Source: an uncultured Pseudomonadota bacterium (GTDB taxonomy: Bacteria; Pseudomonadota; Gammaproteobacteria; Steroidobacterales; Steroidobacteraceae). Taken from it: a DNA stretch of 51,806 nt. Below the pieces are notes generated by a model. That model did no database searches, was not told the DNA's origin, and saw only the letters and a program-made list of their open reading frames with translations. Made by a program: the position numbers and the translations under genes. This document shows, piece after piece, positions 32,216 to 50,243 of the stretch. How positions within the stretch are numbered: the first letter of the stretch is position 1; every line of letters begins with the position of its first letter. The stretch covers positions 1 to 51,806 of the forward strand of contig CAIVTJ010000045.1 in assembly GCA_903908825.1 (NCBI GenBank), in the 5' to 3' direction.

Positions 32216-33460
32216 ATGCTACGAAGTCAATTACTGCCTCTGACAGCCCTTGCGCTGCTGGCCGCTGCGGCGCCGGCCCAATCCCAGGTCATGCCGCCTG
32301 AGCACACGATGTCTCATGAGGACATGGCCGGCATGGAAGGGATGGAGGGTATGGAAGGCATGGCAGGCATGGACCACATGGCCGGCCATGGCCTGATGTG
32401 GCAGCGCGGCCCGTGGCTGTTGATGACCCATGGCACCCTCAACTGGGTTTACGACAATCAGGGCAGCCCGCGCGGGGGCCGCCAAGGGTTTCTATCCGGC
32501 ATGGTCATGGGCAGTGCCGAACGCTCACTGGCTGAAAACGACACCCTGAATTTAACGGCCATGCTCAGCCCTGAACCGCTGATGGGCCCTGAGGGCTATC
32601 CGCTGTTGCTGGCGGCCGGTGAAACTGCCGATGGCCGCACCCTGCTGGTCGATCGCCAGCATCCGCACGATCTGTTTATGGAGCTTTCGGGCCGGTACAG
32701 CCATGCACTGTCCGCCACATCCGGCGTCTGGCTGTATGCCGGTCTGCCCGGGCAGCCCGCATTCGGCCCCGCAGCCTTCATGCACCGCGAATCGATCAAC
32801 GACAGCCCGGAAGCACCCATCGCGCACCACTGGCTGGACTCGACGCATGTGAGTTTTGGCGTGTTGACGGCTGGCCTGCGCGTTACGCAGTGGAGCCTTG
32901 AGGCCTCGGCTTTCCGCGGCCGTGAGCCCGATCAAAACCGCTACGACATCGAGACGCCGCGCTTGGACAGCTGGTCTGCGCGGCTGTCCTGGCAACCCAC
33001 GACCACTCTCGCGCTGCAAACCTCGTGGGCGCAGCTGCACAGCCCGGAAGCGCTGGAGCCGCAACGTAACGAGCGCCGCTGGACCGCCAGCCTCAGCTAC
33101 ACCGGCCAAGCTTCAGATCAGGGATGGTGGGCCACCACTTGGGCGGTCGGCCGCAAACAGCCTGACGGACTGCCAGCACGCTCGGCTTGGTCGGCTGAGG
33201 CCAGTTACCACCCAAACGTGCAGTGGAGCCTCTACGGCCGGATCGAACAAGTGGAGTCGGACGAATGGCAGCCTGCGCTGGATTTGCAGCAAGCCCACAA
33301 ACTGACCCTGGGGGCTGTACATGACTGGCCCTTAGGCACACGCCTCTGGCTGGGCCTAGGCCTACAACTCTCGCAGGCGGGCGTATCGCCCGCGCTGCGC
33401 CCGGCCTATGGCAACCACCCCTACAGCGGCATGGGCTTCTTGCGGCTGCGCAGCCGCTGA
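32216..33460 (+). CDS. Putative outer-membrane beta-barrel protein with Met/His-rich N-terminal segment (family not recognised)
   Basis: Sec signal (ALALLAAAAPAQSQ), then HTMSHEDMAGMEGMEGMEGMAGMDHMAGHG, then about 340 aa of alternating-polarity strands rich in W/Y/G (WSLEASAF, WSARLSW, WTASLSY, WSAEASY, WSLYGRI). Contains a DRQHPHD motif. Confidence 0.75.
   Translation: MLRSQLLPLTALALLAAAAPAQSQVMPPEHTMSHEDMAGMEGMEGMEGMAGMDHMAGHGLMWQRGPWLLMTHGTLNWVYDNQGSPRGGRQGFLSGMVMGSAERSLAENDTLNLTAMLSPEPLMGPEGYPLLLAAGETADGRTLLVDRQHPHDLFMELSGRYSHALSATSGVWLYAGLPGQPAFGPAAFMHRESINDSPEAPIAHHWLDSTHVSFGVLTAGLRVTQWSLEASAFRGREPDQNRYDIETPRLDSWSARLSWQPTTTLALQTSWAQLHSPEALEPQRNERRWTASLSYTGQASDQGWWATTWAVGRKQPDGLPARSAWSAEASYHPNVQWSLYGRIEQVESDEWQPALDLQQAHKLTLGAVHDWPLGTRLWLGLGLQLSQAGVSPALRPAYGNHPYSGMGFLRLRSR
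32324..32386 (+). repeat. Seven in-frame tandem 9-bp units (ATG-GNN-GGN/CAC) encoding (M-x-G)n
   Basis: ATGGCCGGC ATGGAAGGG ATGGAGGGT ATGGAAGGC ATGGCAGGC ATGGACCAC ATGGCCGGC, read directly from 32324-32386. Confidence 0.9.
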
Positions 33461-33470
33461 CCGCTGCCGC

Positions 33471-34259
33471 TTAACGCGGATTGGTGTGGTGGCTGTCGTC
33501 CACCATGTGCTGCATGTCCTGCTCGATGCAGGGTGCTGGTTCGCCAAAGTCGACCTCTGACCGGGTAAGGGTACGCGGCCGCATGACCCAAGGCTGAGCC
33601 AGCATGACCGGGTCTTCGACCACAGCGCGATAGTCGATGGTATCGCCCGTCCGTCGCAGCCTTTCGGTAACGCGCAACTGGGTGCTGTGAATGGCGCCAT
33701 CGTCGGTCAGCCAGGTCTCTTCGTTGAAGTTGCGCGTTTCGACCACCAGCGTGTCGCCTTCCCAACGCCCCAGAGCCTCGCCCTGATAGGACTCGCTGTC
33801 ATCGTTGCGCTTGGCGTTCGCATCGAGCGGCACCACGCGGAAAAACGGACCTGACACGTCCTCATACAAGAAGATGACCTCGCGGGCGGTCTGCACGATT
33901 TTGTCCGGCGGGCCGATGCGCGGGACACCTGGAGGACGGCAGCGCAGCACCGGGTCGAACTGAACCTGTTTGGCTGCCAGCTCTTGAACGCGCGCCACAA
34001 ATTGCGGCTTGTAAACAGGCCGGTCCGGGACCACAACGGCACGCGGTGCCGGCTTTTGGCCTGACGGCGCACACCCGGTGACGCAGACCGAACCCTTGGG
34101 GCCGGCCACGGGTTTAACAAAGTCGATGCCGCCACCGTTCTCCCAGACCCCGTTCAGATCCGGATGACCGTTGATCAGATGAGGTGCCGACGCGGCGCCC
34201 CACACTAGCGACGCAAACAGCAGCGCTGCCACGCCCGACGCGATTGAGCGGATGGTCAT
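33471..34259 (-). CDS. Secreted protein of unknown function, family A paralogue 1
   Basis: Starts at ATG 34259, preceded by GGGGGAGG. Signal peptide MTIRSIASGVAALLFASLVWGAAS. Shares LNGVW, C-x-PPG-x-P, SYQGEALGRWEGDTLVVET, LRVTER and a C-terminal Cys with ORFs 34714-35505 and 36512-37405. Confidence 0.8.
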   Translation of the reverse strand: MTIRSIASGVAALLFASLVWGAASAPHLINGHPDLNGVWENGGGIDFVKPVAGPKGSVCVTGCAPSGQKPAPRAVVVPDRPVYKPQFVARVQELAAKQVQFDPVLRCRPPGVPRIGPPDKIVQTAREVIFLYEDVSGPFFRVVPLDANAKRNDDSESYQGEALGRWEGDTLVVETRNFNEETWLTDDGAIHSTQLRVTERLRRTGDTIDYRAVVEDPVMLAQPWVMRPRTLTRSEVDFGEPAPCIEQDMQHMVDDSHHTNPR

Positions 34260-34284
34260 ATCAGCCTCCCCCGTGTGCTTGTTG

Positions 34285-34704
34285 TTATGGATTAGCAGCA
34301 GACTTGTCGTTGGGATCGGGACTGAACTGCAGATGCCGGCCGTCACCGAAACTCATATCCAGTAGATAACCAAAGGCCGGCGTGCCATTGCGTGCCGGAT
34401 GAGCGGCGACGGTCACAGTCTGGCCCTCGCCCAGCAACTGCTGCTTGGACAAACCACCTTTGCGCATCATGGCCACCGGCAGGCACTCCAGCCGCCACGT
34501 GGTCACAGCACCACCCGCCTCTTTGACGTCAAGATAGACCGACGTGTGCGGATTGACCCAGTCCACCCGGCTGACCGTGCCGGTCAGTTTCAAGGTACGG
34601 CTGATGTCGAACACACCGGCTACCGAATGGTGAGCCGCCGCTGGCATCGCGAGGGCAGCCAGCGCAACAGCCAAAGAGGCCAACAGGTTTCGCTTCGCGT
34701 TCAT
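34285..34704 (-). CDS. Small secreted protein, family B paralogue 1 (mature N-terminus His-His-Ser)
   Basis: Signal peptide ...ALAMPAAA followed by HHSVAGVFD. Has a WVNPH motif. Paralogous to 35601-36020 and 36041-36451. Confidence 0.8.
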   Translation of the reverse strand: MNAKRNLLASLAVALAALAMPAAAHHSVAGVFDISRTLKLTGTVSRVDWVNPHTSVYLDVKEAGGAVTTWRLECLPVAMMRKGGLSKQQLLGEGQTVTVAAHPARNGTPAFGYLLDMSFGDGRHLQFSPDPNDKSAANP

Positions 34705-34713
34705 AAGACCGCC

Positions 34714-35505
34714 TTATTGCAAAATGGTATGACCCGACTCGTCGACAGGATTGCGATCATTTTCGGCGCAGACAAACTCCATCAAGCTCCACTCGCGCTG
34801 ACGGGTGAAGGTGTGGGTGATGTGATAGGGCTGCGCCAAAGCATCAGCGTCATCTAACGTGACTTCGTCGATAAAGGTCTGCGGATCTTTAGCATCCAAG
34901 TGCATGCGCTCGACGATATGTAACTTGGGGCTGTGCTTGATGCCGGGCCCCAGCTCGGTAATGGTCTTGATGCCCACAGTGTCGACGACCAACACCTGGC
35001 CGTCCCAATGGGCTGTTGAGTGGCCGAACACGCCGGGCTCCAGATCATCGGGGTGACCGCGACCGTCGGTGTAGATGGATCGCCATTGCATCCACGCCTC
35101 GTGGTGCACTGTCACCCGCCCGGGAGTGAACATGAACTCGATGGGGTATTGCGCAGTCGCCAGCATATTGGGCATGCCCGGTGGCATGCAGTTGGAGGTC
35201 TCGCGACGGACCACGCCGCTATTGCTCTTGACCTCGTTCTGCCACGCTTCATAGCGCTTGAGGTATTCACCCTTGAGCTGCGGACGCTCCCGGGGCGGCT
35301 CGCCCGGGGCCGGCGGCTTGGGGCGCGCCAAGACCCACACACCACCCCAGTCAGGCAAGGCGTTGAGCGCGGCGTAGGCTCCCTTGGGGAACGCGGCATT
35401 GACCGCCTGTTTTGAAGGGGCGGCTGCCGCACCGGCGACGCCCGCACCCAGCACAGAACACAGCAGCAGGGCCACAGGTCCGACGGTCAATCGTTGAAAT
35501 TTCAT
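34714..35505 (-). CDS. Secreted protein of unknown function, family A paralogue 2
   Basis: Starts at ATG 35505 (MKFQRLTVGPVALLLCSVLGAGVAGAAA). Motifs WGGVW, NCMPPGMPNM, FGHSTAHWDGQVLVVDT, LHIVER and EFVCAEND. The longer ORF reaching 35712 has no signal peptide and is rejected. Confidence 0.8.
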   Translation of the reverse strand: MKFQRLTVGPVALLLCSVLGAGVAGAAAAPSKQAVNAAFPKGAYAALNALPDWGGVWVLARPKPPAPGEPPRERPQLKGEYLKRYEAWQNEVKSNSGVVRRETSNCMPPGMPNMLATAQYPIEFMFTPGRVTVHHEAWMQWRSIYTDGRGHPDDLEPGVFGHSTAHWDGQVLVVDTVGIKTITELGPGIKHSPKLHIVERMHLDAKDPQTFIDEVTLDDADALAQPYHITHTFTRQREWSLMEFVCAENDRNPVDESGHTILQ

Positions 35506-35521
35506 ACTTGCACCCCCACTC

Positions 35522-35550
35522 TTATCTAACGGCCGCAGTAAGCATATAAT
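35522..35550 (+). promoter_or_regulatory. Putative promoter for the family-B gene pair (TTATCT-17 nt-TATAAT)
   Basis: Perfect TATAAT at 35545-35550. A weak -35 TTATCT lies at 35522-35527. Located in the 95-nt divergent intergenic region. Confidence 0.35.
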
Positions 35551-35600
35551 GCCCGTAGTCACAGTTGCACGCATCAGCCAATCAGGCTGGGGGACATCAG

Positions 35601-36020
35601 ATGAACATCCGTATTGCAATCGCATCTTTGGTGGCGGCCTCGGCCAGCGTGGCGCTGCCGGCTTATGCCCACCATTCGTTTGCCATGTTCGACCAGACCA
35701 AGCAGGTTTCACTCAAGGGCACTGTCACAGAGTTCCAGTGGACCAATCCGCATGCCTTTATTCACGTCGAGATCGCCGGTGACGGCGGCGCCAAAGAGAC
35801 CTGGGACATCGAGCTCAACAGCCCCAATAATCTCAAGCGTCAGGGCTGGAGTTCGAGCAGCGTCAAGGTGGGCGACAAGGTGGTCTTGGTTGCTAACCCG
35901 CTGCGCGAAAACGCCCACAAGGGTGGCTTATTCATCGCTGTCACGCTTCCCGACGGCACCGTCCTGGGCGATGCCACTCGCGCCGGTGGCGGCCCGATCA
36001 ATGTACCGGTCGTACCCTGA
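35601..36020 (+). CDS. Small secreted protein, family B paralogue 2 (mature N-terminus His-His-Ser)
   Basis: ATG 35601 preceded by GGGGGA. Signal ...VALPAYA followed by HHSFAMFD. Has a WTNPH motif. Confidence 0.8.
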   Translation: MNIRIAIASLVAASASVALPAYAHHSFAMFDQTKQVSLKGTVTEFQWTNPHAFIHVEIAGDGGAKETWDIELNSPNNLKRQGWSSSSVKVGDKVVLVANPLRENAHKGGLFIAVTLPDGTVLGDATRAGGGPINVPVVP

Positions 36021-36511: not shown

Positions 36512-37405
36512 TTACTTCTTGGCCCGATCGTCCAGAGCCTTCTGACCTGCGCCCGTGCTGGGCAGGTTCTGGTTCAGGTTAGGTAAGCACTCCACTTCCG
36601 GAATGTCGCTGTAGTCCTGACGCAAAAAGTTCTTGCTGCTCTTCCATTCGCCGGGCCACATCTTCGGGTCGGTCAGGCTGTAGTCGATATGCATCGTCAT
36701 GCCCTTATCGAGCATGGTGATGCGTTCGACGATTTCAAACTCGTCGCTGATCGGTATACCCGAATCGATGTAGTGCTCGTTGGGCTCGATGTACTTGGTG
36801 CTGACCACCAGCGTGTCTTTTTCCCAATGACCAATCGACTCGCCGTTGTAAGTGGGCACCGCATAGTCAGAGTCTGCATGCTCCCGGCCATCGAGATAGA
36901 TGAAGCGCATGCTGTTGGTGAATGCGAACAACATGTAAATGATGGTGGGCTTCTGAATCATGCTGATGGGCCAGACGCGGGTCATGATCATCGGCATACC
37001 GATCGGGTAGCACTGACCGCTGACATCGCGATAAGCCACACCCTTCTTGCGGGCCTCTTCGGCTTCACGAAGGGCAGTCTGGCCGGGTTCTTTGAAGGCC
37101 GGATAGTTGGGGCCGAAACGGAAGTCGTTAAATGAACGGCGCAGATCAACAAACCAAGTGCCGGTCACATCGAAGGGTGCCTTGGGGCGCTTCTTGGCCA
37201 GGTTCTCGGGGGCCAGCGCACCCAAGTACTTCGGGTGCTTGTGGGCCAGCTCATCCATACGGTCTTGGCTGAGTCCACCGCCAGCCGTACGACCGGCTGC
37301 CGGTGCGGCAGGTGCCGCCGCTTGAGCGAAACAGAGCCCGGGCAGCGCCGAAAAAACGACCGACAAGGCCGCGGTCTTAGCAAAACCAGGAAGTGACTTG
37401 AACAT
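36512..37405 (-). CDS. Secreted protein of unknown function, family A paralogue 3
   Basis: ATG 37405 (MFKSLPGFAKTAALSVVFSALPGLCFAQA) preceded by GGAGG. Motifs VTGTW, QCYPIGMPMI, YNGESIGHWEKDTLVVST, FEIVER and EVECLPN. An alternative ATG lies at 37426. Confidence 0.8.
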   Translation of the reverse strand: MFKSLPGFAKTAALSVVFSALPGLCFAQAAAPAAPAAGRTAGGGLSQDRMDELAHKHPKYLGALAPENLAKKRPKAPFDVTGTWFVDLRRSFNDFRFGPNYPAFKEPGQTALREAEEARKKGVAYRDVSGQCYPIGMPMIMTRVWPISMIQKPTIIYMLFAFTNSMRFIYLDGREHADSDYAVPTYNGESIGHWEKDTLVVSTKYIEPNEHYIDSGIPISDEFEIVERITMLDKGMTMHIDYSLTDPKMWPGEWKSSKNFLRQDYSDIPEVECLPNLNQNLPSTGAGQKALDDRAKK

Positions 37406-37434
37406 GGACGGCGTGCCTCCGAGCATCAGAAATA

Positions 37435-40400
37435 TTAGCGGGTCGTTTTCAAACTGCGAACGAACTCAATTATGGGTGTAGTCACGGTCTGATCACCACT
37501 GCCCACAGAGTAGGATTCGGAAATATGCGAGTGTCCGGCCGCACGAAACTGCTGGTAAGGCAGGCCCGTGGCCGCCCGGGCGCGCACCAGCGCTGCAGCG
37601 TCGCTGATAAAACTCTCGGGATCGAGCTCGGCATGGGTAATCAATAACGGTACCGGACTACGCGCCAACAACTGCAGGGACTCGCGCGCCGCATACTGGC
37701 TGACATCCTCGCCGTAATAGTCCTTCCACACGGACACGGTGTTGCCCAAGGTGTAGATGCCGCTCATCAAGACCGCACCAGCCACGCCGGGCTGAGTCGT
37801 ATGCGCCAGGTAATCCGCGACATGCGCGCCGCCGGCGGAGTGACCCCACAGGATGATCTGCTGCGGATCACCGCCGTAGTCAGCCGCATGCGCTTTGAGC
37901 CAAGCGACCAGACGCGTCAGATCTTCTATGCCCGCCGGATATTGAAACTGCGGCGCAAGACGATAGTTGATGGTGATGCCGACCAAACCTTGACCAGCGG
38001 CCCACACACCGATGTTGTCGTAGAACGGTGAATCGGGCGCACTCTTGGCGCCCCCGCGAAACCCGCCGCCATGGACAAACACCAGTACCGGCTTGCCACG
38101 CTTGCCGTCATTGCCGGTAAACACGTTCACCCGGTGGCGCTCGTGCGGACCATAGGCGGCATCACGCTGTACCGTGACGCCGGCGTAAGGCTCGCGGGCT
38201 TGCAGCGGCGCATACAAGGGCGTGGTCTTGGCGCCATCTATGCGCGGGCCGATTTCCCGCAGGGCCGCAGCAATCGATGCAGGCATGCCACCCGTGGCCT
38301 GCGCTCGCGCTGCCGGCACAGCAAAGGCTGGCGGGATCGGGTAAGAGGCCATCTGCGCGGCTAGCGGCTGCAGCGACGGCAGTTGCGTGCGGCCGCTGAC
38401 CGGATTGGCATAGTGGTAAGGAATCTCATAGACCACCGGGAACATGGCAATAGGCAATGTGGGTGGCGAGTCAGGTGGAAACTCAGGACTGATGCCGGGC
38501 ATGCCACGACTGGAACCCTTGGCCCACCCTCCCTCGTAATTGGCCGACCAAGTGTTGTAGGTGTGCACGACACTGAAGCGCCACACGCCATTTTCTTTGA
38601 TGGCTTCATTCTCGTAAACCGAAGCACCCATAGAGGCGCGATTACCCAGGTTCATCTGTTGCAGCATGCGCAAGCGGATCTTGGCGCTGTTGCCATCGGC
38701 TGCCACATGGATGACCGGCTGCATCTGAATGTGGTTGCCCAATCGCCCGACGACAGGACCTTCTTCACCGCGACCAAACACTTTGATCAGGAAGTCACGC
38801 AAGCGCGCACCTTTGTAGACACCGCGCTGCGCCAGTTCGATGCTGCCTTCGGCCGCAAACAAGTTAGCCAGATCGGTCCACAGGTTTTTGTCGAGGTAAT
38901 AGCCGTAGGCGCTCTCGAGGTTTTCCAGCTCATGAAAGTCCTTGGCGCGAGCCACCAGACTCTCGGCTTGCGTCACTGCTGCCGCAACGTCTGTAACCGC
39001 CTTAGCCTTGACCGCAGCAGGCGTGAACAGCGTCGCCGCAGCGATAGCGGCACCCGGACCACCCACCTGCGGATAGACAGCCGGCGCACCGGTCACAGGA
39101 TTGCGGTAGTGATAAGGCGGCACATGCGCCTTGGGATAGATGGCATAAACCTGGGTCGGCGGCCGGTCGGGTGGCAGCGCAGCCAGCACGCCCGGTGCAG
39201 CTTGCGCATCCTTGGCCCAACCTTGGTCATAGTCGCTGATGAAAGTCGGGTAGTAATGCACCGACTGGAACTTCCAGACGCCACCTTCATTGACGTAAGC
39301 ATTTTCGTAAATGCCTTCGCTCCACTGACCACTCTTACCGTATGTGCCGGTCATAGACAGTTCGCGGCTACGCGCCCGCGCCGTCTTGCCATCGGGCGCA
39401 ACCGTCACCACCGTCTGCAATTGCAGATGGTCGTTAAGCCAGCCGGGCACCAGCCCATGCGGGCCTAAGGTGCCCAGGAAGGCGCGCACTCTGGTTTTGC
39501 CGACATACACGCCCTGCTGCGCGAACTCTAAGGTGCCCTTGCTCGCGAACAGATCGGCAATTTGATCCCACTGTGCGCGGTCCAGGTAATAGCCGTAGAT
39601 GCGCTGCAGGTTCTCGATGTCCTGCTCGTCGCGCAGACGTTGCGCGCGTCGCAGCAGGTCTGCAGCGGTCTGATGCAAATCACCTTCAACAGGCAGCACC
39701 TGCAGTTGGCTGGCATCCCAAGCCTGGCCACCGCTGAGCGTGGCGCCGGGATTGCTGTAATGAAAAGGCGCCAGGCAGGCCGCCGGAAACCCCTCGCAGT
39801 CCATCTTGCGTTCGACATCGGCCGGATGAGCCAGCGGCTGACGGACGCGGGTCGCGGTCGCAGGCGGGGCCACCCAGCCGCCGGCGTAGGGCGCACTGAA
39901 TCCGGTGTGATAGTCCAGCCGGGCAATTTTCCATACGCCATCACGGCGTACGTAATTCATCTCGTACACACCCTCTGCCCAGTTGGCGCCGTTACCGACA
40001 CCGCCAAAATAGGCCAACACCCGCCAGCGACCCTTAGCCGACTGTCCGCCCGGGTCCAGGTGGACCACAGGCTGGATGTTCATGTGGTTGTAGAGTCGGT
40101 TATCGCCAAGGCCTACCTGGCCCATGGGTACATTGCCGACATTACGGAACAGGTGCTCACGAATGCTGGCCTTGCCGATGAACACACCAGCCGGATAGTT
40201 GGCATAAGCGTCATCGGTGAACAACTCGGCCACATCAGCCCATAGGCCTTTGTCGACGTAATAGCCGTAGGTCCGTTGCAGTCGCTTGACGGCCTGCAGA
40301 TCTTCACCGGCCTGTACTTGGGCAGCCAGCAGGGCTGTACGCTCGGCCAGTGGCGACACAGCGGGCACACTGGCAGCCTGCCCTGACGTCCAAGCAGACA

Positions 40401-40452
40401 ACAAGGCCAGCGCGCAGCAGCGTAGTGCCAGTGTTTTAAAACTCATGCTCAC
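37435..40452 (-). CDS. Secreted multidomain protein: three NTF2/SnoaL-like modules plus a C-terminal alpha/beta hydrolase (esterase/lipase-type)
   Basis: Sec signal. Three repeats with L(Q/E)..YGYY(V/L)D...W.D.A.LF and GVW(K/R)(I/F) motifs, each followed by a P(F/Y)HY.NP linker. C-terminal HGGGF oxyanion motif (38059-38073) and GHSAGG nucleophile elbow (37828-37845). Confidence 0.85.
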   Translation of the reverse strand: MSMSFKTLALRCCALALLSAWTSGQAASVPAVSPLAERTALLAAQVQAGEDLQAVKRLQRTYGYYVDKGLWADVAELFTDDAYANYPAGVFIGKASIREHLFRNVGNVPMGQVGLGDNRLYNHMNIQPVVHLDPGGQSAKGRWRVLAYFGGVGNGANWAEGVYEMNYVRRDGVWKIARLDYHTGFSAPYAGGWVAPPATATRVRQPLAHPADVERKMDCEGFPAACLAPFHYSNPGATLSGGQAWDASQLQVLPVEGDLHQTAADLLRRAQRLRDEQDIENLQRIYGYYLDRAQWDQIADLFASKGTLEFAQQGVYVGKTRVRAFLGTLGPHGLVPGWLNDHLQLQTVVTVAPDGKTARARSRELSMTGTYGKSGQWSEGIYENAYVNEGGVWKFQSVHYYPTFISDYDQGWAKDAQAAPGVLAALPPDRPPTQVYAIYPKAHVPPYHYRNPVTGAPAVYPQVGGPGAAIAAATLFTPAAVKAKAVTDVAAAVTQAESLVARAKDFHELENLESAYGYYLDKNLWTDLANLFAAEGSIELAQRGVYKGARLRDFLIKVFGRGEEGPVVGRLGNHIQMQPVIHVAADGNSAKIRLRMLQQMNLGNRASMGASVYENEAIKENGVWRFSVVHTYNTWSANYEGGWAKGSSRGMPGISPEFPPDSPPTLPIAMFPVVYEIPYHYANPVSGRTQLPSLQPLAAQMASYPIPPAFAVPAARAQATGGMPASIAAALREIGPRIDGAKTTPLYAPLQAREPYAGVTVQRDAAYGPHERHRVNVFTGNDGKRGKPVLVFVHGGGFRGGAKSAPDSPFYDNIGVWAAGQGLVGITINYRLAPQFQYPAGIEDLTRLVAWLKAHAADYGGDPQQIILWGHSAGGAHVADYLAHTTQPGVAGAVLMSGIYTLGNTVSVWKDYYGEDVSQYAARESLQLLARSPVPLLITHAELDPESFISDAAALVRARAATGLPYQQFRAAGHSHISESYSVGSGDQTVTTPIIEFVRSLKTTR
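38383..40311 (-). repeat. Three tandem, diverged coding repeats (periods 672 and 690 bp) inside the 1005-aa gene
   Basis: The 12-mer GTAATAGCCGTA (plus strand, encoding YGYY on the minus strand) recurs at 38896, 39586 and 40258. The protein modules are about 224-230 aa apart. Confidence 0.85.
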
Positions 40453-40733
40453 TCCGGGATCCAGTGGCGATCGGCAGGCGCAGCGTTGGCCTTTAAGGCC
40501 TGAGCCTGCGGCACACCGCTGTCAATGTGGAACGCATAGGGGGGATAGGCCAGACACATGTCATCCACATGCCAGTCACCGCACGGATCTAGAGGCACGC
40601 AAACCTGAGTCAGTGGCGCGGCTTGCAACAAGGAGGCTGGCAACAGGCCTGCAACCAGACCGCCACCGACAGTCACCGTGATGCCGCCCAGAAACTGACG
40701 ACGTTGCAGGCAGGCTGACGCTAAGTCAGACAT
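40449..40733 (-). CDS. Tiny Tat-signal protein (about 94 aa precursor), function unknown
   Basis: MSDLASACLQRRQFLGGITVTVGG... is a twin-arginine motif plus h-region. AAGGAG lies 5 nt upstream of ATG 40733. Its stop overlaps the start of the 1005-aa gene (ATGA at 40449-40452). Confidence 0.65.
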   Translation of the reverse strand: MSDLASACLQRRQFLGGITVTVGGGLVAGLLPASLLQAAPLTQVCVPLDPCGDWHVDDMCLAYPPYAFHIDSGVPQAQALKANAAPADRHWIPE

Positions 40734-40742
40734 CACAGCTCC

Positions 40743-42176
40743 TTACACCTTGAACGGCGGCAGTTCGTTGGCACCGAACCAATTGGTGTGCGTGCCACCG
40801 CGCAGACGGAATGGCAGCTTGACCGTGGCCACAGCGCCTTCTTCCATGCGCTGCGCATCGACGATGACCAGATCACTGGACATCGACTCGTAGTTGCTGG
40901 CGATACCCAGCAGATAACCATCGCCCTCGCCTTTACTGCCCTTGCGCGGCACAAAGCAGCTCTCCTGCAGGCTCTGCACCGGGCCGACAAAATAGTTGCT
41001 GATCGCACCTGTGGTGACATCGACCCGCTGGTATTGGTTGGTCACGAAACCACCCATGCCGCCGGCGCGCGTCTTGTCGAAGGGCAGGTTCGGATCACGG
41101 TTGCCCACATAGCAATACTTGTAAGGCAGCGACAGATAGCGATCGTCCATACGCGCCAACACACCGTTGGACACCGACACCAGTTCTTCGTCGAAGGTGT
41201 CTTTTTTGGACTTCATGTTCATCGTCCAGCGCCGGATCTGCGATGGATCACGCTCACCGCTGGAGGTGGGCAGTTCCATGGTGATGCGGCCGTCCGGATG
41301 ATCTTGCGCATTGAGAAAGTGCAGCGTGTTGCGCGCCGGCCCTTTGAACCAACGCACGTCCTTGCCGCTGCCATCACGAGGCACCACAGCAAGCATCGTC
41401 GGCTTGCTGCCATCCCACTCCCACATCGGCTCGCCCGATTTCAGGCGCTCCAGGCTGGTGACACGCGGGATCAGCGGAATGATCACGTATTTCTGCGTGA
41501 TGGCGCAGTCATGCATGATGCCGACGTAAGGGGCCTTGAACCAGATGTCGTGCACGATCTGGCCCGACTTATCGATGATGTAAACAGCAATGTCGTCGGT
41601 CAGATCACCCTTGGCCTGATACCCATAGGCGATCATCTGGCCGTTGACTGGATCGATCTTCGGATGCGCCGAGAACGTCGTGGCGGTGTACTTACCGTTG
41701 AAGTTCCAGATGCCCTGAGTCTCTAGCGTGTGCGGATTGATGGTCCACGGCAATGAATCTTCTTTGAGCACCAGCATCTTGCCGCCGTGCCAATACAGAT
41801 GCGTATTGGCCGCCGAGCGATCGAGCTTGGCCACGCTGGGGTCATCGGTGTAGCGGTTGCGGTAAACGCCATATAAGCGCCGATGCGCATCGCGCTCGGC
41901 CTGCAAGCGCTGCGTCTGCACGTAGCGGCTGCGATAGTTGACGTTACCGTCCTTGAAGTAGAAACGGCTGACGTGACCGTCACCGTTAAAGCCTGTGGGC
42001 CATTCGTTCTGCGGCGGCCGGTACTGAAAGTCGCACTGGATGCGGTAGAACGAACCGTCGATATCCGCGGGCACTTTGCCCCAGACCTCACAGTCATAAA
42101 CATCGGCCTCAAAGCGCGTCGGCGCATTGAAGCCGGTGGCCGGGAACATCGGATGACCGCGGAAATCGACTGCCAT
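40743..42176 (-). CDS. Carotenoid-cleavage-oxygenase family protein, lignostilbene-alpha,beta-dioxygenase-like
   Basis: 477 aa, no signal peptide. Four candidate iron-ligand His contexts (SAHPKIDP, IMHDCAIT, LHFLNA, GGTHTNW). FNGDGHV, YRNRYTDD, AANTHLYWH and KEDSLP resemble LSD-type enzymes as I remember them. Confidence 0.9.
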   Translation of the reverse strand: MAVDFRGHPMFPATGFNAPTRFEADVYDCEVWGKVPADIDGSFYRIQCDFQYRPPQNEWPTGFNGDGHVSRFYFKDGNVNYRSRYVQTQRLQAERDAHRRLYGVYRNRYTDDPSVAKLDRSAANTHLYWHGGKMLVLKEDSLPWTINPHTLETQGIWNFNGKYTATTFSAHPKIDPVNGQMIAYGYQAKGDLTDDIAVYIIDKSGQIVHDIWFKAPYVGIMHDCAITQKYVIIPLIPRVTSLERLKSGEPMWEWDGSKPTMLAVVPRDGSGKDVRWFKGPARNTLHFLNAQDHPDGRITMELPTSSGERDPSQIRRWTMNMKSKKDTFDEELVSVSNGVLARMDDRYLSLPYKYCYVGNRDPNLPFDKTRAGGMGGFVTNQYQRVDVTTGAISNYFVGPVQSLQESCFVPRKGSKGEGDGYLLGIASNYESMSSDLVIVDAQRMEEGAVATVKLPFRLRGGTHTNWFGANELPPFKV

Positions 42177-42186
42177 GGGAGACTCC

Positions 42187-44766
42187 TTAGAAGTTCTTCT
42201 TCACCGTCAGGGCCCACTCACGCGGACGCCCTGCAGTGCCTACGCGCGCATAAGTCGGGTAGCCGTCGAGGGCCCCGCCGCGGATGGTCTCGCTGCCCAA
42301 CTGCTGCCAATAGAACTTATCGAACAGGTTATTGGCCGACAGCGCCACCTGCCAACTGCCGCCGGCCGGCTCAAAGGTCAGGCGTGCGTTGACCAAGCCA
42401 TACGACGGCACGATGTCCTGCGGATCACGCTGCGGCAACGCTGCGTTACCGTTGGTGCGATAGCCCTGATAGCTGTAATCGACGCGCGGCGTCAGCTTGG
42501 CGCCACTCTCGAACAGCACCTGATACTGGGCACCGACACTGCCGTTGATCTTGGGCTGGATCAACGCTGACGAGTCACGATAGCTGAGGGTTCCCGGTGC
42601 CGCGTCACCACTAAAGGTGATGTAGCCGAAGGACGCGTTGAGCATCAACCCCTGCATCGGGAAGGCCGTGATTTCGGTTTCGAAACCACGCGTCTTACCA
42701 GGCTCGTTCAAGTACAGGAACCAGCTGGTACCGGCCAGACCGGCCCGCTCAGTGCCTGCCGGGCATGGCGCGCCGTTGAGGAAGTAGGGCTGGCCCGGGT
42801 CCGGGTTGGAACTGAGCGTGCACTGACTGGCCGTGCGGTTGACCAAGCGGCTCTTCCAGTCCATGTAGAACAAGGCTGAATTGATGCGTAGCTTTTTGTC
42901 GAACAGCTCGACCTTGCCGCCGAACTCATAGTTGATCACTTCCTCACCCGGCAGGCCTTGCACCTGGCCGATGGTGAATACGCGCGGCGTCACACCAGCC
43001 GAGGTAAAGCCGGTGGCCACCGACGTATACAGAAAGATGTTGTCCGTAGCCTGATAGTCCAGACCGACCTTGTAGTCAGGACGGCTGCCGCCGTAGTGCA
43101 GCGGAGATGGCAGCACCACCAGACCGTAGTGACGGAAATCATTGATCTTGCTTTCGTCGGTGTAACGCAAACCACCGGACAGGGCCAGCTTGTCCGTGAA
43201 CTTATAGCTGCCGTGCACAAAGGCCGAGGTGTTCTGCGATGAGAAGGTGTCATCCGCGACGAACTGCAGACCGAAGGTCACGAAGTTGGCGGTGTTATAG
43301 GCACGACTGTTGGACTTGTAATAAAACGCGCCCACGGTCCAGTCGAACTTGTCGGACAACAGCGTGCCGTCGATGCGCGCCTCAGCCTGGTACTGCGAAT
43401 GCTGCTGCAGGTAGTTGGTCTGCGTCAGCTCAAACGGCATCTCGTCGCTATCGTTGATCCAGGTGGTGTTATAGGTGCGATAGGCCGTCAACACGGTCAG
43501 CTTGGTCTTTTCGGCCAGTTCCTGATCCAGAGACAGCGAAGCACCCCAAGCCTTCAGGTGGGTGTAGCGGTCGTAGCTCACACCACTGGTGATGTCACCA
43601 TAGGTCGAGTAGTTGGTGTACGGGTTACCCGTTACGAAACGGTTCTGCGTCTGATAGTTGATACCGTACTTTTTGTAGATGGTCAGCGGATAGCCTGACG
43701 TGGGGACGTCGAGCGGTGCCCAAACCGTGGCTGTGGCACGACCGTCTGCATCACCGCGTGAGCTGAGCAGTGTCTCAACCGGCGGCTCGGACAGCTGGGC
43801 CGAATAGTCCATCGAGAAGTTGATCTCGGTCCCCGAGGCCGGCAGGAACCGCAGCATGGCGCGCACGGCCTGCGACTCTGAACCGCCCAGCGAGCCCAGC
43901 GCGCAGCCGTTGCCCTGACGCGGATCAATGGTCATGGGCATGGCAAACGAATTGTCAGCAGCGCTGCCGGCAGTGACCGGAGTAGGCAGACCACCGACGA
44001 CCGTCGGCGCCGCCAAGCCATCGCCGATACCGGCCAGCGTGGGCGTGCCGCGACGGATCATCTCGCAGGTGAAGTCCAGATTTTTGCCATAGCCGTCCTG
44101 ACGACGTGACACACCGGTCACGCGCGCGAACAGCGTATCGGGCACCAAGGAGAAGTCGGCAACAGCCTTCAGATCAACGCGCTGGCGCGCGCCGTAAGTG
44201 GCTTCGATATAGCCCTTGTCGTCGCCCTGCGGCTTCTTCGAGATCAGACGGATCGCACCGCCCATGCTGTTCTTGCCAAACAAGGTGCCCTGCGGACCGC
44301 GCAGCACCTCGACGCGCTCGAGGTCCATCAGGTCCATGGACGAGCCAGTGAGACTGCCGTGGTACACATCGTCGATATAAATACCCACAGCCGGCTCGAA
44401 GGCATAGTTGAAATCGACTTGGATCAGGCCGCGCAGACCGATGGTGGTGGTAGGGCCGTAGTTGCTGACCGGCTGACGGAAATACGCGTTGGGGATGACG
44501 CTGCCGATATCATCGAGGCTTTTGAAGCTGCGCTGCTCGAGGGCTTCGGCGCTCAGCGCCGTCAGCGTCAGCGGCGTGGACTGCAGGTTTTCTTCTTTGA
44601 AGCGCGCGGTAACCACGATCTCTTGCAGATCGTCGGCGTTGGCCTTGTCAGCAGCTTGGCTGGCTGTGGCAGAAAAGCTCAGCGCAGCGGCAACAGCCAA
44701 GGCGACAGCGCTACGGGCGGCAATACGGCAGTCAGACCGGCGTACCGGCAGTCGGATAGTCTTCAT
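42187..44766 (-). CDS. TonB-dependent receptor
   Basis: 859 aa. Signal peptide, TonB box-like LQEIVVTARF, plug motifs (IGLRG, VEVLRGPQGTLFGKNSMGGAI), a long beta-barrel and a C-terminal ...ALTVKKNF. Confidence 0.95.
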   Translation of the reverse strand: MKTIRLPVRRSDCRIAARSAVALAVAAALSFSATASQAADKANADDLQEIVVTARFKEENLQSTPLTLTALSAEALEQRSFKSLDDIGSVIPNAYFRQPVSNYGPTTTIGLRGLIQVDFNYAFEPAVGIYIDDVYHGSLTGSSMDLMDLERVEVLRGPQGTLFGKNSMGGAIRLISKKPQGDDKGYIEATYGARQRVDLKAVADFSLVPDTLFARVTGVSRRQDGYGKNLDFTCEMIRRGTPTLAGIGDGLAAPTVVGGLPTPVTAGSAADNSFAMPMTIDPRQGNGCALGSLGGSESQAVRAMLRFLPASGTEINFSMDYSAQLSEPPVETLLSSRGDADGRATATVWAPLDVPTSGYPLTIYKKYGINYQTQNRFVTGNPYTNYSTYGDITSGVSYDRYTHLKAWGASLSLDQELAEKTKLTVLTAYRTYNTTWINDSDEMPFELTQTNYLQQHSQYQAEARIDGTLLSDKFDWTVGAFYYKSNSRAYNTANFVTFGLQFVADDTFSSQNTSAFVHGSYKFTDKLALSGGLRYTDESKINDFRHYGLVVLPSPLHYGGSRPDYKVGLDYQATDNIFLYTSVATGFTSAGVTPRVFTIGQVQGLPGEEVINYEFGGKVELFDKKLRINSALFYMDWKSRLVNRTASQCTLSSNPDPGQPYFLNGAPCPAGTERAGLAGTSWFLYLNEPGKTRGFETEITAFPMQGLMLNASFGYITFSGDAAPGTLSYRDSSALIQPKINGSVGAQYQVLFESGAKLTPRVDYSYQGYRTNGNAALPQRDPQDIVPSYGLVNARLTFEPAGGSWQVALSANNLFDKFYWQQLGSETIRGGALDGYPTYARVGTAGRPREWALTVKKNF

Positions 44767-44913: not shown

Positions 44914-46998
44914 TCAGGGCTTGTGCGGCACCAGGCGTTGCAAAATATAGGCGCTGATGTCGGCAATCTGCTCCGGCGTGTAGATATCGCGGAACACCGG
45001 CATATTGTTGCGGCCCTGACTTGTGACCAAAGCGATCTGGGCGGTGTCCAGGTTACCGCCCACCAGCGTAGGTCCGCCGCCGTGCCCGCCACTACCGGAT
45101 TCGCCATGGCAGGCCACGCAAGCTGCCTGATACAGCGCCTGACCCTGCTCTGCCACACCAGCCCGTGACGCCACCGCGACCGCAGCAGCGCGCTGGGGCC
45201 CGGCTAAAGATGCGACCGGAACAGGACCGATCTTGCCATCTAGCGCAAACATCCAGATGCCATCGCCGCGTTTGCCATTGGCAAAGGCTCCGCCACCGGC
45301 ATGCACAACCACATATTGCTTGCCCTTGTGCTCAAAGGTCGTGACCGTGGTGTTGACGCCGGCATCGGTCTGGAACTCCCACAGCTTGGCGCCGGTGGTT
45401 TTATCGAGTGCAGTCAGCCGGCCATCGGCACGGCCGACAAACAACAGACCACCGCCCGTGACCACTGCACCGCTGTAGCAGATCTCGCGCCACTGCTGGC
45501 GCCACACCAAGCGATTGGTGCGCACGTCCAGCGCAGCCAGCACGCCACCATCATGAACCTGCGACTGCGTGAAGTTGCCGCCCATGTAAACCTTGTTGGG
45601 CCCGGGTGTTTCCAGCGGCAATCGCACCACGAAATTGCTGATACGATCGGATGCACACACATACAGCAGGTGACTGGACGGGTCATAAGCACTGGGCGGC
45701 CAGTTCGCACCACCCATGGTGCCGGGCTTCATCATCGTCGGCTCGTTCCAGAACGGCGTGAAGATGCGCCCGCCATTAGGAATCTCGCTGCTCCCGGGCA
45801 ACCGCCTCGCGTCCTCGGGGACGATGTCGATCTGCTGCGGCACGATGGCATCGCCCACCGGATAAGGCTGCGTAGCCGCCGTCTGCTGGCGCGGCTCTTG
45901 CGGCACAGGCTTTTCGGTGATGCCCAGCAACGGCTTGCCGGTCACGCGGTCAAGGATGTAGGCCCAACCGGTCTTGCCCACCTGCACCAGGGCTTTGCGC
46001 GTCTTGCCCTTGTAAGGCGCGTCGAATAACACCACCGGGTTGGGTGCGTCATAGTCCCAGATGTCGTGGTGCACTTCCTGAAAGTGCCAGCGGTAGCTGC
46101 CGGTGCGCACATCCAGCGCAACGATGGAATTGGCGAACAGGTTGTCGCCCTTGCGAACACTGCCGTTGAGATCGGGCCCGGGATTGGCCGTCGAGAAATA
46201 GATGAGACCCAACTCAGGGTCTATGGCCGGTGTCTGCCAGATCGACGCGCCGCCGCGTTGCCACGCATCACTGTCGGCAGGCCAGGTCTCGTGACCTTTC
46301 TCTCCCGGACCGGGCACGGTGTAGAACGTCCAAGTCAGCTTGCCGGTCTTGGCATCAAACGCGCGCAGTTTGCCGCGTGTGCCCATCTCGCCACCGTTTA
46401 CACCGGTGATGACCAGGCCATCAAAATACAGCGGAGCTGCCGTGATGGCGTAACCGTCTTCCCAGCGCTCGACCTGTGAGGTCCACACCACTGCGCCGCT
46501 ACGCTGATCCAGCGCCGTCAACTTGGCATCGGCCTGCGTGACAAACACTTTGCCATCGCCCAGAGCCACACCACGATTAGCCCGGCCTATGGGACTACCG
46601 GCATGCAGATCTGGATTGCCGTGGTAGGTCCACAGGATGTTGCCGGTCTCCACCTGCAGGGCGAACACATCGTTGGCGCCATTGCTGACGTAGAGCACCC
46701 CTTCATAGGAGAGGATTTGCGCTTGACCAGCATGACCCGGCGTGGTGCCGCTGTTCATACTGGTGCGCCACAGGGCGCGCAGACCTGCGACGTTATCGCG
46801 GTTCAGTGTCGACAGCGGGGAATAACGCTGGTTGTACAGCGTGCCGCCGTTGGTGATCCAGGCCGTGGTCGGCGGCGCCAGCAACTGGGCGGCAGAGAAT
46901 GCAGGTGCCGATGCTGGCGACTGGGCCAGCGAAGCTGAACTGGCCGTTAGCAGCAAGACCGCAGCCCAATGTGACAGTTGTGACGTCATCCGTGTCAT
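44914..46998 (-). CDS. PQQ-dependent quinohemoprotein dehydrogenase (alcohol-dehydrogenase family with C-terminal cytochrome c domain)
   Basis: ATG 46998 preceded by GGGGGAAG. Signal peptide. Eight-bladed propeller W-motifs (e.g. G..LW, G..VW). WDYD active-site segment. C-terminal CVACHG heme c motif. Confidence 0.9.
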   Translation of the reverse strand: MTRMTSQLSHWAAVLLLTASSASLAQSPASAPAFSAAQLLAPPTTAWITNGGTLYNQRYSPLSTLNRDNVAGLRALWRTSMNSGTTPGHAGQAQILSYEGVLYVSNGANDVFALQVETGNILWTYHGNPDLHAGSPIGRANRGVALGDGKVFVTQADAKLTALDQRSGAVVWTSQVERWEDGYAITAAPLYFDGLVITGVNGGEMGTRGKLRAFDAKTGKLTWTFYTVPGPGEKGHETWPADSDAWQRGGASIWQTPAIDPELGLIYFSTANPGPDLNGSVRKGDNLFANSIVALDVRTGSYRWHFQEVHHDIWDYDAPNPVVLFDAPYKGKTRKALVQVGKTGWAYILDRVTGKPLLGITEKPVPQEPRQQTAATQPYPVGDAIVPQQIDIVPEDARRLPGSSEIPNGGRIFTPFWNEPTMMKPGTMGGANWPPSAYDPSSHLLYVCASDRISNFVVRLPLETPGPNKVYMGGNFTQSQVHDGGVLAALDVRTNRLVWRQQWREICYSGAVVTGGGLLFVGRADGRLTALDKTTGAKLWEFQTDAGVNTTVTTFEHKGKQYVVVHAGGGAFANGKRGDGIWMFALDGKIGPVPVASLAGPQRAAAVAVASRAGVAEQGQALYQAACVACHGESGSGGHGGGPTLVGGNLDTAQIALVTSQGRNNMPVFRDIYTPEQIADISAYILQRLVPHKP

Positions 46999-47066
46999 GT
47001 CTTCCCCCAGACAATTTCTTATATGCGGCATTATGCGCTTACTCAATTGCCGATAAAGAAGCGCTC

Positions 47067-47477
47067 ATGGCACTGCGTACTCTGGAACACTTTTTGGTGT
47101 TGAGCCATCAGCCCGAAGCAACACGCAATTTTTACCGGGATGCACTAGGCCTGGTCGAAGGTGACAGACCCGATCTGGGCTTTCCTGGCTATTGGCTATA
47201 CCTAGGCTCAGTGGCCTGCATCCACATTGCTGAGTGGCACAGTTACACCGCGCACAGCCAAAGCATCGGCATACCCGTCAGCACACCGGCGGCCGGCACA
47301 GGCGGGCTGGATCATCTGGCTTTTCAGGCCGGCAATTACGAGGCGTTTGTGGCCAACCTGAGCCGCCATGGCATTGCGGCACACCGGCACGACACACCGG
47401 CCATAGGCCTGCGTCAGTTATTTTTGTTTGACCCCAACGGCATCAAGTTGGAGATCAACTTCCAGCAGGGCCACTGA
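47067..47477 (+). CDS. VOC-family protein (glyoxalase / extradiol dioxygenase fold)
   Basis: 136 aa with LEHFLVLSH...FYRDALGL and LDHLAF...FLFDPNGIKLEI motifs typical of the VOC fold. Confidence 0.75.
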   Translation: MALRTLEHFLVLSHQPEATRNFYRDALGLVEGDRPDLGFPGYWLYLGSVACIHIAEWHSYTAHSQSIGIPVSTPAAGTGGLDHLAFQAGNYEAFVANLSRHGIAAHRHDTPAIGLRQLFLFDPNGIKLEINFQQGH

Positions 47478-50213: not shown

Positions 50214-50243
50214 GCGGGAATCCTCGGTCTTGCGGTGCGGCGC

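Follow-up and report, generated by a model that had tools for sequence, protein, structure and literature searches.

What does a bacterium do with an exported protein in which three related NTF2/SnoaL-like modules precede an esterase, and do these modules serve the esterase or act as enzymes in their own right? The question is raised by a 1005-aa open reading frame in the 51,806-nucleotide stretch of DNA analysed here (the window). The reading frame, its tripled DNA repeat and the protein motifs described in the original prediction were all confirmed in the sequence: GTAATAGCCGTA occurs in exactly three copies in the window (38896, 39586 and 40258; matches in 0/100 shuffles), YGYY lies at aa 62, 286 and 516 (spacing 224 and 230 aa), P(F/Y)HYxNP at aa 229, 446 and 678, HGGGF at aa 794 and GHSAGG at aa 870, and GVW(K/R)(I/F) is present in every repeat. 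The assignment of the repeats to the NTF2/SnoaL superfamily held up in Pfam, which finds three SnoaL_4 (PF13577) stretches (E 2.3e-75; score 251 bits, cut-off 24) besides BD-FAE, Abhydrolase_3 and COesterase matches at aa 775-905. The true start is more likely the ATG at 40446 (M3 of the listed reading frame), which would give 1003 aa, since GGAG lies 5 nt upstream of it, and since a small ORF further upstream ends in a stop codon that the GTG at 40452 overlaps. Scanning 36-45 kb for promoters and terminators gave no signal exceeding shuffle expectation.

Table 1. Features of the reading frame and its neighbourhood, in window coordinates.
Feature	Position	Strand	Protein range	Remarks
Whole ORF	37435..40452	-	1005 aa	Signal peptide, three LdpA-like NTF2 modules, linker, esterase
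Putative Sec-type signal peptide	40375..40452	-	aa 1-26	MSMSFKTLALRCCALALLSAWTSGQA/AS; by inspection; pLDDT ~50
Module 1, NTF2 barrel and C-terminal arm, LdpA-like	39733..40374	-	aa 27-240	Key residues Y62, D67, H123, E160, Y163, Y181; arm Cys219/Cys226 invariant
Module 2, NTF2 barrel and arm, LdpA-like	39058..39732	-	aa 241-465	Key residues Y286, D291, H342, E379, Y382
Module 3, NTF2 barrel and arm, LdpA-like	38383..39057	-	aa 466-690	Key residues Y516, D521, H574, Y613
Pro/Ala-rich linker	38287..38382	-	aa 691-722	Partly disordered, pLDDT < 50 at aa 709-720
EstF27/BD-FAE-like serine esterase	37438..38286	-	aa 723-1005	HGGGF 794-798, GHSAGG 870-875 (Ser872), Asp944, His974/His976
Small ORF between dioxygenase gene and whole ORF	40449..40733	-	94 aa	Twin-arginine signal (QRRQFLGG); conserved GDWHVDDMCxAYPPYA
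Lignostilbene-dioxygenase-like gene (RPE65 family)	40743..42176	-		No signal peptide
TonB-dependent receptor	42187..44766	-		Present in 26/80 loci
PQQ quinohaemoprotein alcohol dehydrogenase	44914..47046	-		PQQ propeller and cytochrome c domain; 45/80 loci, often two copies
Exported protein, no family match	36512..37426	-	304 aa	8 bp downstream, same operon; downstream partner in 36/80 loci
Paralogue of the 304-aa protein	34714..35712	-		
Paralogue of the 304-aa protein	33471..34346	-		

All three modules match LdpA (PDB 8ABT-8ABW), the NTF2-type γ-formaldehyde lyase of SYK-6 that converts a lignin β-1 dimer to lignostilbene (PMC9942872) and whose homologue PcfL is a β-5 phenylcoumaran lyase (PMC11323797). 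The matches have E-values of 1e-23 to 1e-27 at 32-39% identity, and the next-best NTF2 enzyme is LinA at ~1e-3. The alignments of modules 2 and 3 span LdpA residues ~10-227 or ~22-246, arm included, and that of module 1 covers the barrel as far as the start of the arm; Foldseek places the modules on LdpA with a TMt of 0.73 and 34-36% identity, and the modules are 31-41% identical to one another. The His97-Asp40 dyad of LdpA (Motif I) has equivalents in H123/D67, H342/D291 and H574/D521, where Asp is conserved in 111/111 homologues and His in 106-111/111. Its oxyanion-hole residues Tyr35 and Tyr147 correspond to Y62/Y163, Y286/Y382 and Y516/Y613, which are kept in 107-111 of the 111. Over the three modules, each of the 12 positions equivalent to Tyr35, Asp40, His97 and Tyr147 is thus kept in 106-111/111 homologues; together with the LdpA homology this argues against the earlier view of the repeats as multivalent capture modules serving the esterase. 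The remaining pocket positions differ between the modules yet are conserved within each.

The second catalytic motif of LdpA, Glu143-Tyr165-Gln170, in which the Glu is essential by mutagenesis, is not conserved. The Glu143 position is occupied by Ala159 in module 1, Ser378 in module 2 and Gly609 in module 3, and HMMER and MAFFT alignments agree on a conserved Glu one residue further on in modules 1 and 2 only, a register shift from W-E-S-G in LdpA to W-A/S-E-G here. On a regular β-strand the shifted Glu would point to the opposite side. Module 3 (G609, A610) has no acidic residue at or adjacent to this position. The Tyr165 position holds Tyr in module 1, Phe/Tyr in module 2 and Ala/Thr in module 3, and the Gln of LdpA is absent, its position being taken by Ser/Gly, Ile or Ser/Thr. 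With the Glu143 motif out of register, the substrate probably differs from that of LdpA. Sphingomonad NTF2 paralogues at most 40% identical to LdpA are inactive on DGPD (PMC9942872), and since the identity of 32-39% found here falls within that range, the substrate of the modules cannot be assumed.

LdpA is a homotrimer held together by its C-terminal arm (PMC9942872). The AlphaFold model of the three-module core (pLDDT 94.9, pTM 0.95) shows, per module, one helix followed by a curved sheet of four to five strands, and arms that have no secondary structure yet a pLDDT above 90. According to this model the modules form one rigid body, while the full-length model (pTM 0.74) has a disordered linker at aa 709-720. 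The rigid three-module model, the full-length homology to LdpA and the arm of the LdpA homotrimer lead us to interpret the array as a pseudo-trimer joined covalently, whose three pockets are not identical and for which we infer a three-fold (pseudo-C3) geometry. By analogy with LdpA, P(F/Y)HYxNP would be the end of the trimer-stabilising arm and not the linker for which it had been taken. A fold search of the PDB returned no single chain spanning more than one module. The sole multi-module match, iota-carbonic anhydrase 7C5Y, was set aside as not comparable (TM 0.12-0.16, rmsd 34 Å).

The C-terminal domain is, as originally predicted, an esterase, and its Ser/Asp/His triad is intact: S872, D944, H974 and H976, as well as G795-G797, are invariant in 111 homologues. 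It resembles the feruloyl esterase EstF27 (4ZRS; E 1e-63, Foldseek TMt 0.87, 43% identity over the 285-aa domain), and the best Pfam model is BD-FAE (PF20434; score 75 bits, cut-off 26.8). It has the fold, oxyanion hole, nucleophile and Asp/His of the Family IV (HSL-type)/EstF27/BD-FAE carboxylesterases, and NCBIfam equivalog models all score far under their cut-offs. The 43% identity to EstF27 suggests that it may hydrolyse feruloyl or hydroxycinnamoyl esters. The domain is missing from 22/72 complete close relatives and from most of the distant three-module relatives, the gene neighbourhood being retained in both, so that it is an optional accessory part rather than the principal catalyst originally envisaged. 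Since 48 of the best 150 representative clusters likewise consist of the triple module without esterase or any other domain, the modules must work independently. No separate esterase gene lies within 10 kb in 22 of 23 esterase-less loci; the exception, L065, has a weak match of 32% identity just downstream of the gene.

Export is suggested by an N-terminus that reads, by inspection, MSFK, TLALRCCALALLSAW and TSGQA/A, with a charged n-region, a hydrophobic h-region and small residues at -3/-1. A simple hydrophobicity test finds a charged N-region and a hydrophobic stretch ahead of the first conserved helix in 96/109 homologues, in line with the Sec-like signal noticed earlier, and lipoprotein boxes replace this signal in some esterase-less relatives. 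The invariant Cys219/Cys226 pair in the arm of module 1 would fit an oxidising compartment. The protein is probably exported via the Sec signal, and its location is presumably periplasmic.

In 60 of the 80 related loci a lignostilbene-dioxygenase-like gene lies immediately upstream on the same strand. Its product matches stilbene-cleaving enzymes at ~1e-100, as against ~1e-30 for carotenoid oxygenases. The exported protein encoded downstream and its paralogues have no match in Pfam (E up to 10) or in a PDB sequence search, and a large protein database returns 'hypothetical protein' alone. Clustering at 90% identity yields at least 120 clusters that are full length. Relatives, all of them from metagenome-assembled genomes (MAGs), are encoded in the genomes of 256 GTDB species, and the 80 loci examined, likewise all from MAGs, are mostly Steroidobacteraceae-like. 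The claim that the architecture is undescribed stands in one respect, the searchable literature holding no characterised example of a triple-NTF2 or NTF2-esterase protein, and needs amending in another: it is not rare, being common among Steroidobacteraceae-like bacteria that are uncultured.

As the best explanation we propose, with moderate confidence, an exported bifunctional enzyme that would de-esterify phenylpropanoid dimers in the periplasm and cleave them to stilbenes. Domain identities, residue conservation, the rigid three-module model and synteny are observed, and the compartment, substrates and order of steps would be as follows. The conserved pathway for plant phenylpropanoid dimers would run from the outer membrane, where the TonB receptor may import them, to the periplasm. 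There the EstF27/BD-FAE-like serine esterase, tethered by its flexible linker, would strip off an ester, hydroxycinnamoyl or acetyl, such as a γ-acyl group blocking the γ-OH or a polysaccharide link. The three LdpA/PcfL-type NTF2-like lyase units, each a full-length copy, would fold into one intramolecular pseudo-trimer in which each extended C-terminal arm packs against the neighbouring module, the covalent counterpart of the LdpA homotrimer, and fusion would have let the three pockets diverge, each being conserved separately. With the His-Asp dyad as general acid-base and the Tyr-Tyr oxyanion hole, which in LdpA drive quinone-methide chemistry on 4-hydroxyphenyl substrates, the modules would turn diarylpropane- or phenylcoumaran-type dimers into 4-hydroxystilbenes, and the adjoining lignostilbene dioxygenase would then split these into aromatic aldehydes. 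The predicted conversion of dimer to stilbene with release of formaldehyde draws indirect support from the upstream dioxygenase gene, and has a precedent in that the characterised relatives LdpA and PcfL both make stilbenes cleaved by such dioxygenases. The dioxygenase itself lacks a signal peptide, so for the compartments to agree either import of the stilbene or co-export of the dioxygenase would be required.

The modules could instead be non-catalytic binding or chaperone units for hydrophobic aromatics that present substrate to the esterase, as sole catalyst, or to a transporter. NTF2-like folds frequently serve as binding domains, the Motif II Glu of LdpA is out of register, and distant three-module families often lose the module 1 dyad (His kept in 19/52). 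Binding as the only role is nevertheless hard to reconcile with a His-Asp dyad and a pair of oxyanion tyrosines that are near-invariant in each of the three modules across the subfamily, with the many relatives in which the triple module stands alone, and with a syntenic partner that is a dioxygenase rather than ester-specific transporters; we regard this explanation as improbable. A role in steroid or lipid metabolism, with ketosteroid isomerase- or BaiE-like modules and a lipase- or cholesterol-esterase-like domain, would agree with the Steroidobacteraceae affiliation, with the JGI names 'triacylglycerol lipase' or 'acetyl esterase/lipase', with weak partial matches to bile-salt-activated lipase and cholesterol esterase (E ~1e-11) and with structural matches to BaiE. 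LdpA, however, is ahead of BaiE and LinA by over 20 orders of magnitude in score, and EstF27 (E 1e-63) leads the lipases by over 45. The cluster contains no steroid-catabolic genes and has the conserved lignostilbene-dioxygenase-like neighbour instead. Given the size of these score gaps we rejected the steroid/lipase reading suggested by the database names, which has very little chance of being correct.

More serious, though still unlikely, is the alternative that the modules are active NTF2-type enzymes of another chemistry or substrate class, whose product would still be passed to the dioxygenase. They might decarboxylate ester-linked 8-5' (benzofuran) diferulates, freed from arabinoxylan by the feruloyl-esterase domain, and open their ring in doing so, or they might dehydrate or isomerise other 4-hydroxyphenyl compounds. 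A decarboxylated 8-5' diferulate is a stilbene, and the nearest relatives of the esterase are feruloyl or feruloyl/acetyl-xylan esterases. Motif II is unlike that of LdpA, and the dyad is shared by dehydratases, dehydrochlorinases and decarboxylases within the NTF2 superfamily (PMC9942872). On the other side, the closest characterised homologues are both deformylases, and esterase-less orthologues have the same gene cluster around them.

Extending our preferred explanation, it is conceivable, although we consider it doubtful, that an entire lignin-dimer cleavage pathway resides in the periplasm of uncultured Gammaproteobacteria abundant in soil and fresh water: a homotrimer would have become a single chain with pockets specialised by dimer type or stereoisomer, and the iron dioxygenase would be exported by 'hitchhiking' on the small Tat-signal partner. 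A literature search for a Tat-linked lignostilbene dioxygenase returned nothing relevant. If this extension were true, one polypeptide would replace several stereospecific cytoplasmic enzymes of sphingomonads. To our knowledge, lignin-dimer catabolism in bacteria is known almost entirely from the cytoplasmic enzymes of a few sphingomonads, and within the LdpA-type lyase clade only LdpA and PcfL have been characterised. The locus suggests that a second, widespread lineage degrades such dimers and that its form of the enzyme is fused and exported; fusion of the homotrimer may have permitted three different active sites and added domains (esterase, solute-binding-like, carbohydrate-binding-like). 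It offers candidate enzymes for ester-decorated or stereochemically mixed lignin fragments, of value for lignin valorisation, and a clean natural case of oligomer-to-tandem-repeat evolution.

Among known systems, the protein resembles LdpA and PcfL in combining an NTF2 barrel with an extended C-terminal arm, in its dyad and its oxyanion hole (Tyr35/Tyr147), in its threefold stoichiometry and in having a lignostilbene dioxygenase as gene neighbour. Unlike these enzymes of Sphingomonadales, it joins three diverged units in one chain, is apparently exported rather than cytoplasmic, carries an esterase and belongs to uncultured, Steroidobacteraceae-like Gammaproteobacteria, and it departs from LdpA in the register of Motif II. 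LinA dehydrochlorinase, the closest structural neighbour of LdpA (PMC9942872), and the likewise trimeric NTF2-type BaiE and scytalone dehydratase share its fold and the logic of the His-Asp dyad but are remote (E ~1e-3, 18-25% identity), single-domain and without the long arm. The esterase domain shares with EstF27 and BD-FAE an HGGG oxyanion hole, a GxSxG nucleophile and the conserved residues Asp and His. However, whereas EstF27 is a stand-alone feruloyl esterase of 306 aa from a soil metagenome (PDB 4ZRS; Cao et al. 2015) with a GQSAG nucleophile motif, the domain described here has GHSAG and forms the presumably exported C-terminal appendage of a 700-aa lyase-like core.

Direct reading of the minus strand upheld the 1005-aa ORF of the original prediction together with its repeats. 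The YGYY codons have GTAATAGCCGTA as their reverse complement, and the 51.8-kb window contains this 12-mer exactly three times (at 38896, 39586 and 40258); 100 shuffles gave no match. The protein carries YGYY at residues 62, 286 and 516, P(F/Y)HYxNP at residues 229, 446 and 678, and the esterase motifs HGGGF and GHSAGG at residues 794 and 870. Pfam recovered the proposed domains as three SnoaL_4 stretches (E 2.3e-75) and as BD-FAE, Abhydrolase_3 and COesterase at residues 775-905. Since GGAG lies 5 nt ahead of ATG 40446, and GTG 40452 overlaps the stop codon of the small upstream ORF, the gene probably starts at the ATG, two codons downstream of the GTG originally proposed.

Searched individually against PDB sequences, each repeat matched LdpA (8ABT, 8ABU, 8ABV, 8ABW; E 1e-23 to 1e-27) far ahead of the next NTF2 enzyme, LinA (E about 1e-3). 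Alignments of the second and third modules (M2 and M3) extend from the N-terminal helix of LdpA through the end of its C-terminal extension, where P(F/Y)HYxNPV aligns with PMSFAHPV, so that the segment first taken for a linker is part of the module. By Foldseek, the AlphaFold model matched LdpA with a TMt of 0.73 and 34-36% identity over about 210-218 aligned columns. LdpA is a cofactor-less gamma-formaldehyde lyase converting the lignin beta-1 dimer erythro-DGPD to lignostilbene (PMC9942872), and PcfL, its only other characterised homologue, converts a beta-5 phenylcoumaran to a stilbene (PMC11323797, PMC12997858). Pairwise identity among the modules is 31-41%. To NaLdpA, the LdpA sequence used for residue numbering, it is 32-39%, a range in which sphingomonad paralogues have other substrates. 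Because LdpA paralogues at ≤40% identity do not act on DGPD (PMC9942872), the triple-module protein may act on another substrate.

The NaLdpA residues validated by mutagenesis were located in each module, and their frequency was tallied across 111 homologues. Every module has essentially invariant equivalents of Tyr35, Asp40, His97 and Tyr147 (M1, Y62/D67/H123/Y163; M2, Y286/D291/H342/Y382; M3, Y516/D521/H574/Y613), and each pocket thus has the acid-base and oxyanion residues general to NTF2 enzymes. The LdpA-specific Motif II is not kept; its W-E143-S-G-I-Y reads W-A-E160-G-V-Y in M1, W-S-E379-G-I-Y in M2 and M-G-A-S-V-Y in M3, with a highly conserved Glu shifted by one residue in M1 and M2 and none in M3. 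The Gln170 equivalent is absent, and Tyr165 is retained in M1 only (F/Y in M2, A/T in M3). Judged by their residues, the modules are not strict LdpA orthologues. Other pocket positions differ by module yet are conserved among orthologues (position 93, R/W/R; position 95, Y/N/G), which argues that the three pockets are mutually different and each under selection.

AlphaFold2 models were built with a 111-sequence alignment. The full-length model reached pLDDT 90.1 and pTM 0.74, with residues 709-720 disordered, and the three-module core (aa 27-705) pLDDT 94.9 and pTM 0.95. In the core, the C-terminal arms of the modules comprise about 45-60 residues each, almost without regular secondary structure but mostly at pLDDT >90. 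A pTM of 0.95 over a three-domain chain of 679 residues amounts to a confident prediction of module placement. Given this value, and since LdpA is a trimer with arm exchange (PMC9942872), the simplest reading of the triple module is an intramolecular pseudo-trimer, presumably with three-fold geometry; a fold search of the PDB (Foldseek) returned no chain spanning more than one module. We consider it likely that the protein is a fused LdpA-like pseudo-trimer with an accessory esterase.

Over its whole length, the C-terminal domain (residues 723-1005) matches EstF27, a soil-metagenome feruloyl esterase (4ZRS; E 1e-63; TMt 0.87, 43% identity), and BD-FAE is the best Pfam model. The predicted Ser/Asp/His triad is intact, with Ser872, Asp944, His974/His976 and the HGGG glycines invariant in the 111 homologues. 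In the model, the domain is tethered by a partly disordered Pro/Ala-rich linker. It is evolutionarily dispensable; of the 72 ORFs that are complete in the best 80 GTDB loci, 49 encode the esterase and 22 lack it, and within 10 kb of the esterase-less loci a separate gene with even a weak esterase-like match was found only once (locus L065). Two MAG loci (L029 and L031) have neighbouring genes 85-93% identical to those of the window, and their triple-module proteins (709 and 708 aa; 77% identity over three modules) lack the esterase, so the domain has recently been gained or lost among close relatives.

The predicted export is borne out by an N-terminus in which a charged n-region precedes a hydrophobic core and GQA|A, and a simple test of charge and hydrophobicity is passed by 96 of 109 homologues. 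Lipoprotein boxes occur in several of the relatives without an esterase. Cys219 and Cys226, both in the arm of M1, are invariant, which would fit a disulfide formed in an oxidising compartment.

Housekeeping genes (gyrA, pheA, aroA, smc, ligA, pnp, infB, nusA) make up the first 31 kb of the window, and the cluster occupies the minus strand from about 33 kb. Matches of the dioxygenase to stilbene-cleaving oxygenases (CsO2, SYK-6 enzymes, NOV1, LsdA, CAO1) reach about 1e-100, against about 1e-30 for those to carotenoid or apocarotenoid oxygenases; its best NCBIfam score is to the lignostilbene dioxygenase model, but under the equivalog cut-off. It lies 10 bp from the upstream receptor gene and has no signal peptide of its own.

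Genes of the cluster and its surroundings, with occurrence in 80 related GTDB loci
Feature	Coordinates	Strand	Transcription order	Occurrence
DUF1592/DUF1588/DUF1595/DUF1585, DUF1552 (HXXSHH) and ankyrin-repeat (480 aa) genes	47455..51701	-	1	about 13/80, upstream of cluster
PQQ quinohaemoprotein dehydrogenase		-	2	45/80 (one or more)
TonB-dependent receptor		-	3	26/80
Lignostilbene-dioxygenase-like gene		-	4	60/80, usually directly upstream of triple-module gene, same strand
94-aa ORF, unlisted	40449..40733	-	5	
Triple-module gene	37435..40452	-	6	
Exported ~300-aa protein	36512..37426	-	7	36/80, usually directly downstream of triple-module gene
Exported ~300-aa paralogue	34714..35712	-	7	
Exported ~300-aa paralogue	33471..34346	-	7	
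414-aa ORF	32216..33460	+		no homologue in any of 80

The 94-aa ORF combines a twin-arginine signal (LQRRQFLGG...LLQA|AP) with a short mature part bearing a conserved GDWHVDDMCxAYPPYA motif. In at least 50 of 61 related loci the dioxygenase gene is immediately followed by an ORF that has an RR motif and then W-x-[ILV]-D-[DA], and this ORF stays beside that gene where the triple-module gene is several kb away (L022, L027, L055, L056, L063, L067, L070). This persistence, with the missing signal peptide, suggests that the folded iron dioxygenase is exported together with the ORF product as a Tat 'hitchhiker'; a literature search found no report of a link between lignostilbene dioxygenases and Tat export. 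The three ~300-aa paralogues share about 30% identity with one another and match nothing in Pfam, even at E 10, or among PDB sequences. The first begins 8 bp past the triple-module stop codon and belongs to a strongly conserved family (at least 1617 database matches, the best 120 at 64-100% identity) in which every named match is labelled 'hypothetical protein'. The 414-aa ORF, with a faint TonB-receptor beta-barrel match (E 0.022), may encode an outer-membrane protein or not be a gene at all.

The original prediction did not recognise the architecture as one already described. No description was found in the literature, but the architecture is not rare; all of the best 120 matches (57-89% identity) are full-length, giving at least 120 clusters at 90% identity among the matches listed, and 256 GTDB species genomes encode relatives. 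Database labels on full-length matches read only 'NTF2 family protein' or 'triacylglycerol lipase / acetyl esterase'. All 80 loci examined come from MAGs, mostly Steroidobacteraceae or unclassified Gammaproteobacteria. Searching 1.84 billion cluster representatives with M2 only retrieved 1776 proteins at E ≤0.001. The best 150 include 48 with three modules and nothing else attached, 5 with three modules and other appendages, 27 with two modules (400-560 aa; both inspected, P0135 and P0140, are complete) and 24 with a single module (220-290 aa). The three single-module proteins inspected have signal peptides and share 42-48% identity with M2 and M3, more than LdpA does. Positions 1, 2 and 3 most resemble M1, M2 and M3 respectively in 31 of 52 three-module representatives, which indicates that the triplication is old. 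In these distant families M3 keeps His97 in 51/52 and Tyr147 in 50/52, and the M1 dyad is often lost (His kept in 19/52), a sequence pattern expected if some protomers of a fused oligomer become scaffolds. In place of the esterase, P0139 and P0158 have a ~300-aa N-terminal region like a periplasmic solute-binding protein, P0205 a C-terminal region with AQWWTxxQ repeats as in chitin- or carbohydrate-binding modules, and P0245 an Ig-like tail; the core thus seems to be a platform gaining targeting or accessory domains.

A possible pathway is outlined by an exported chain whose three LdpA-like catalytic cones form a single rigid body in the model, a tethered feruloyl-esterase-like domain whose catalytic residues are complete by sequence, and conserved gene linkage to a dioxygenase of the stilbene type, a TonB receptor and periplasmic PQQ dehydrogenases. 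The receptor would take in plant-derived phenylpropanoid dimers or oligomers, and the esterase would strip a hydroxycinnamoyl or acetyl group. LdpA chemistry requires a free gamma-OH, which His97 deprotonates as formaldehyde is expelled (PMC9942872), so a gamma-acylated dimer would need prior de-esterification. The three pockets could then turn different dimer types or stereoisomers, via a quinone methide, into 4-hydroxystilbenes, which the dioxygenase would cut to aldehydes. Stilbene-forming lyase chemistry on lignin-type dimers is for us an evenly balanced proposition, and we lean slightly towards the combination of this chemistry with the fused pseudo-trimer and accessory esterase. Weak points are that Motif II is not conserved, that identity to LdpA falls in the range of sphingomonad paralogues with other substrates, and that the dioxygenase lacks its own signal peptide.

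Our literature search found no description of the covalent triplication mirroring the parent homotrimer, nor of the export, the diverged pockets, the esterase tether or the non-sphingomonad host lineage. The parts are all of known kinds, namely NTF2 lyases of the LdpA/PcfL clade and family IV/feruloyl-type esterases. Glu143 of LdpA has no in-register counterpart in any module, and whereas LdpA is a homotrimer, the triple-module protein carries three diverged modules in one chain.
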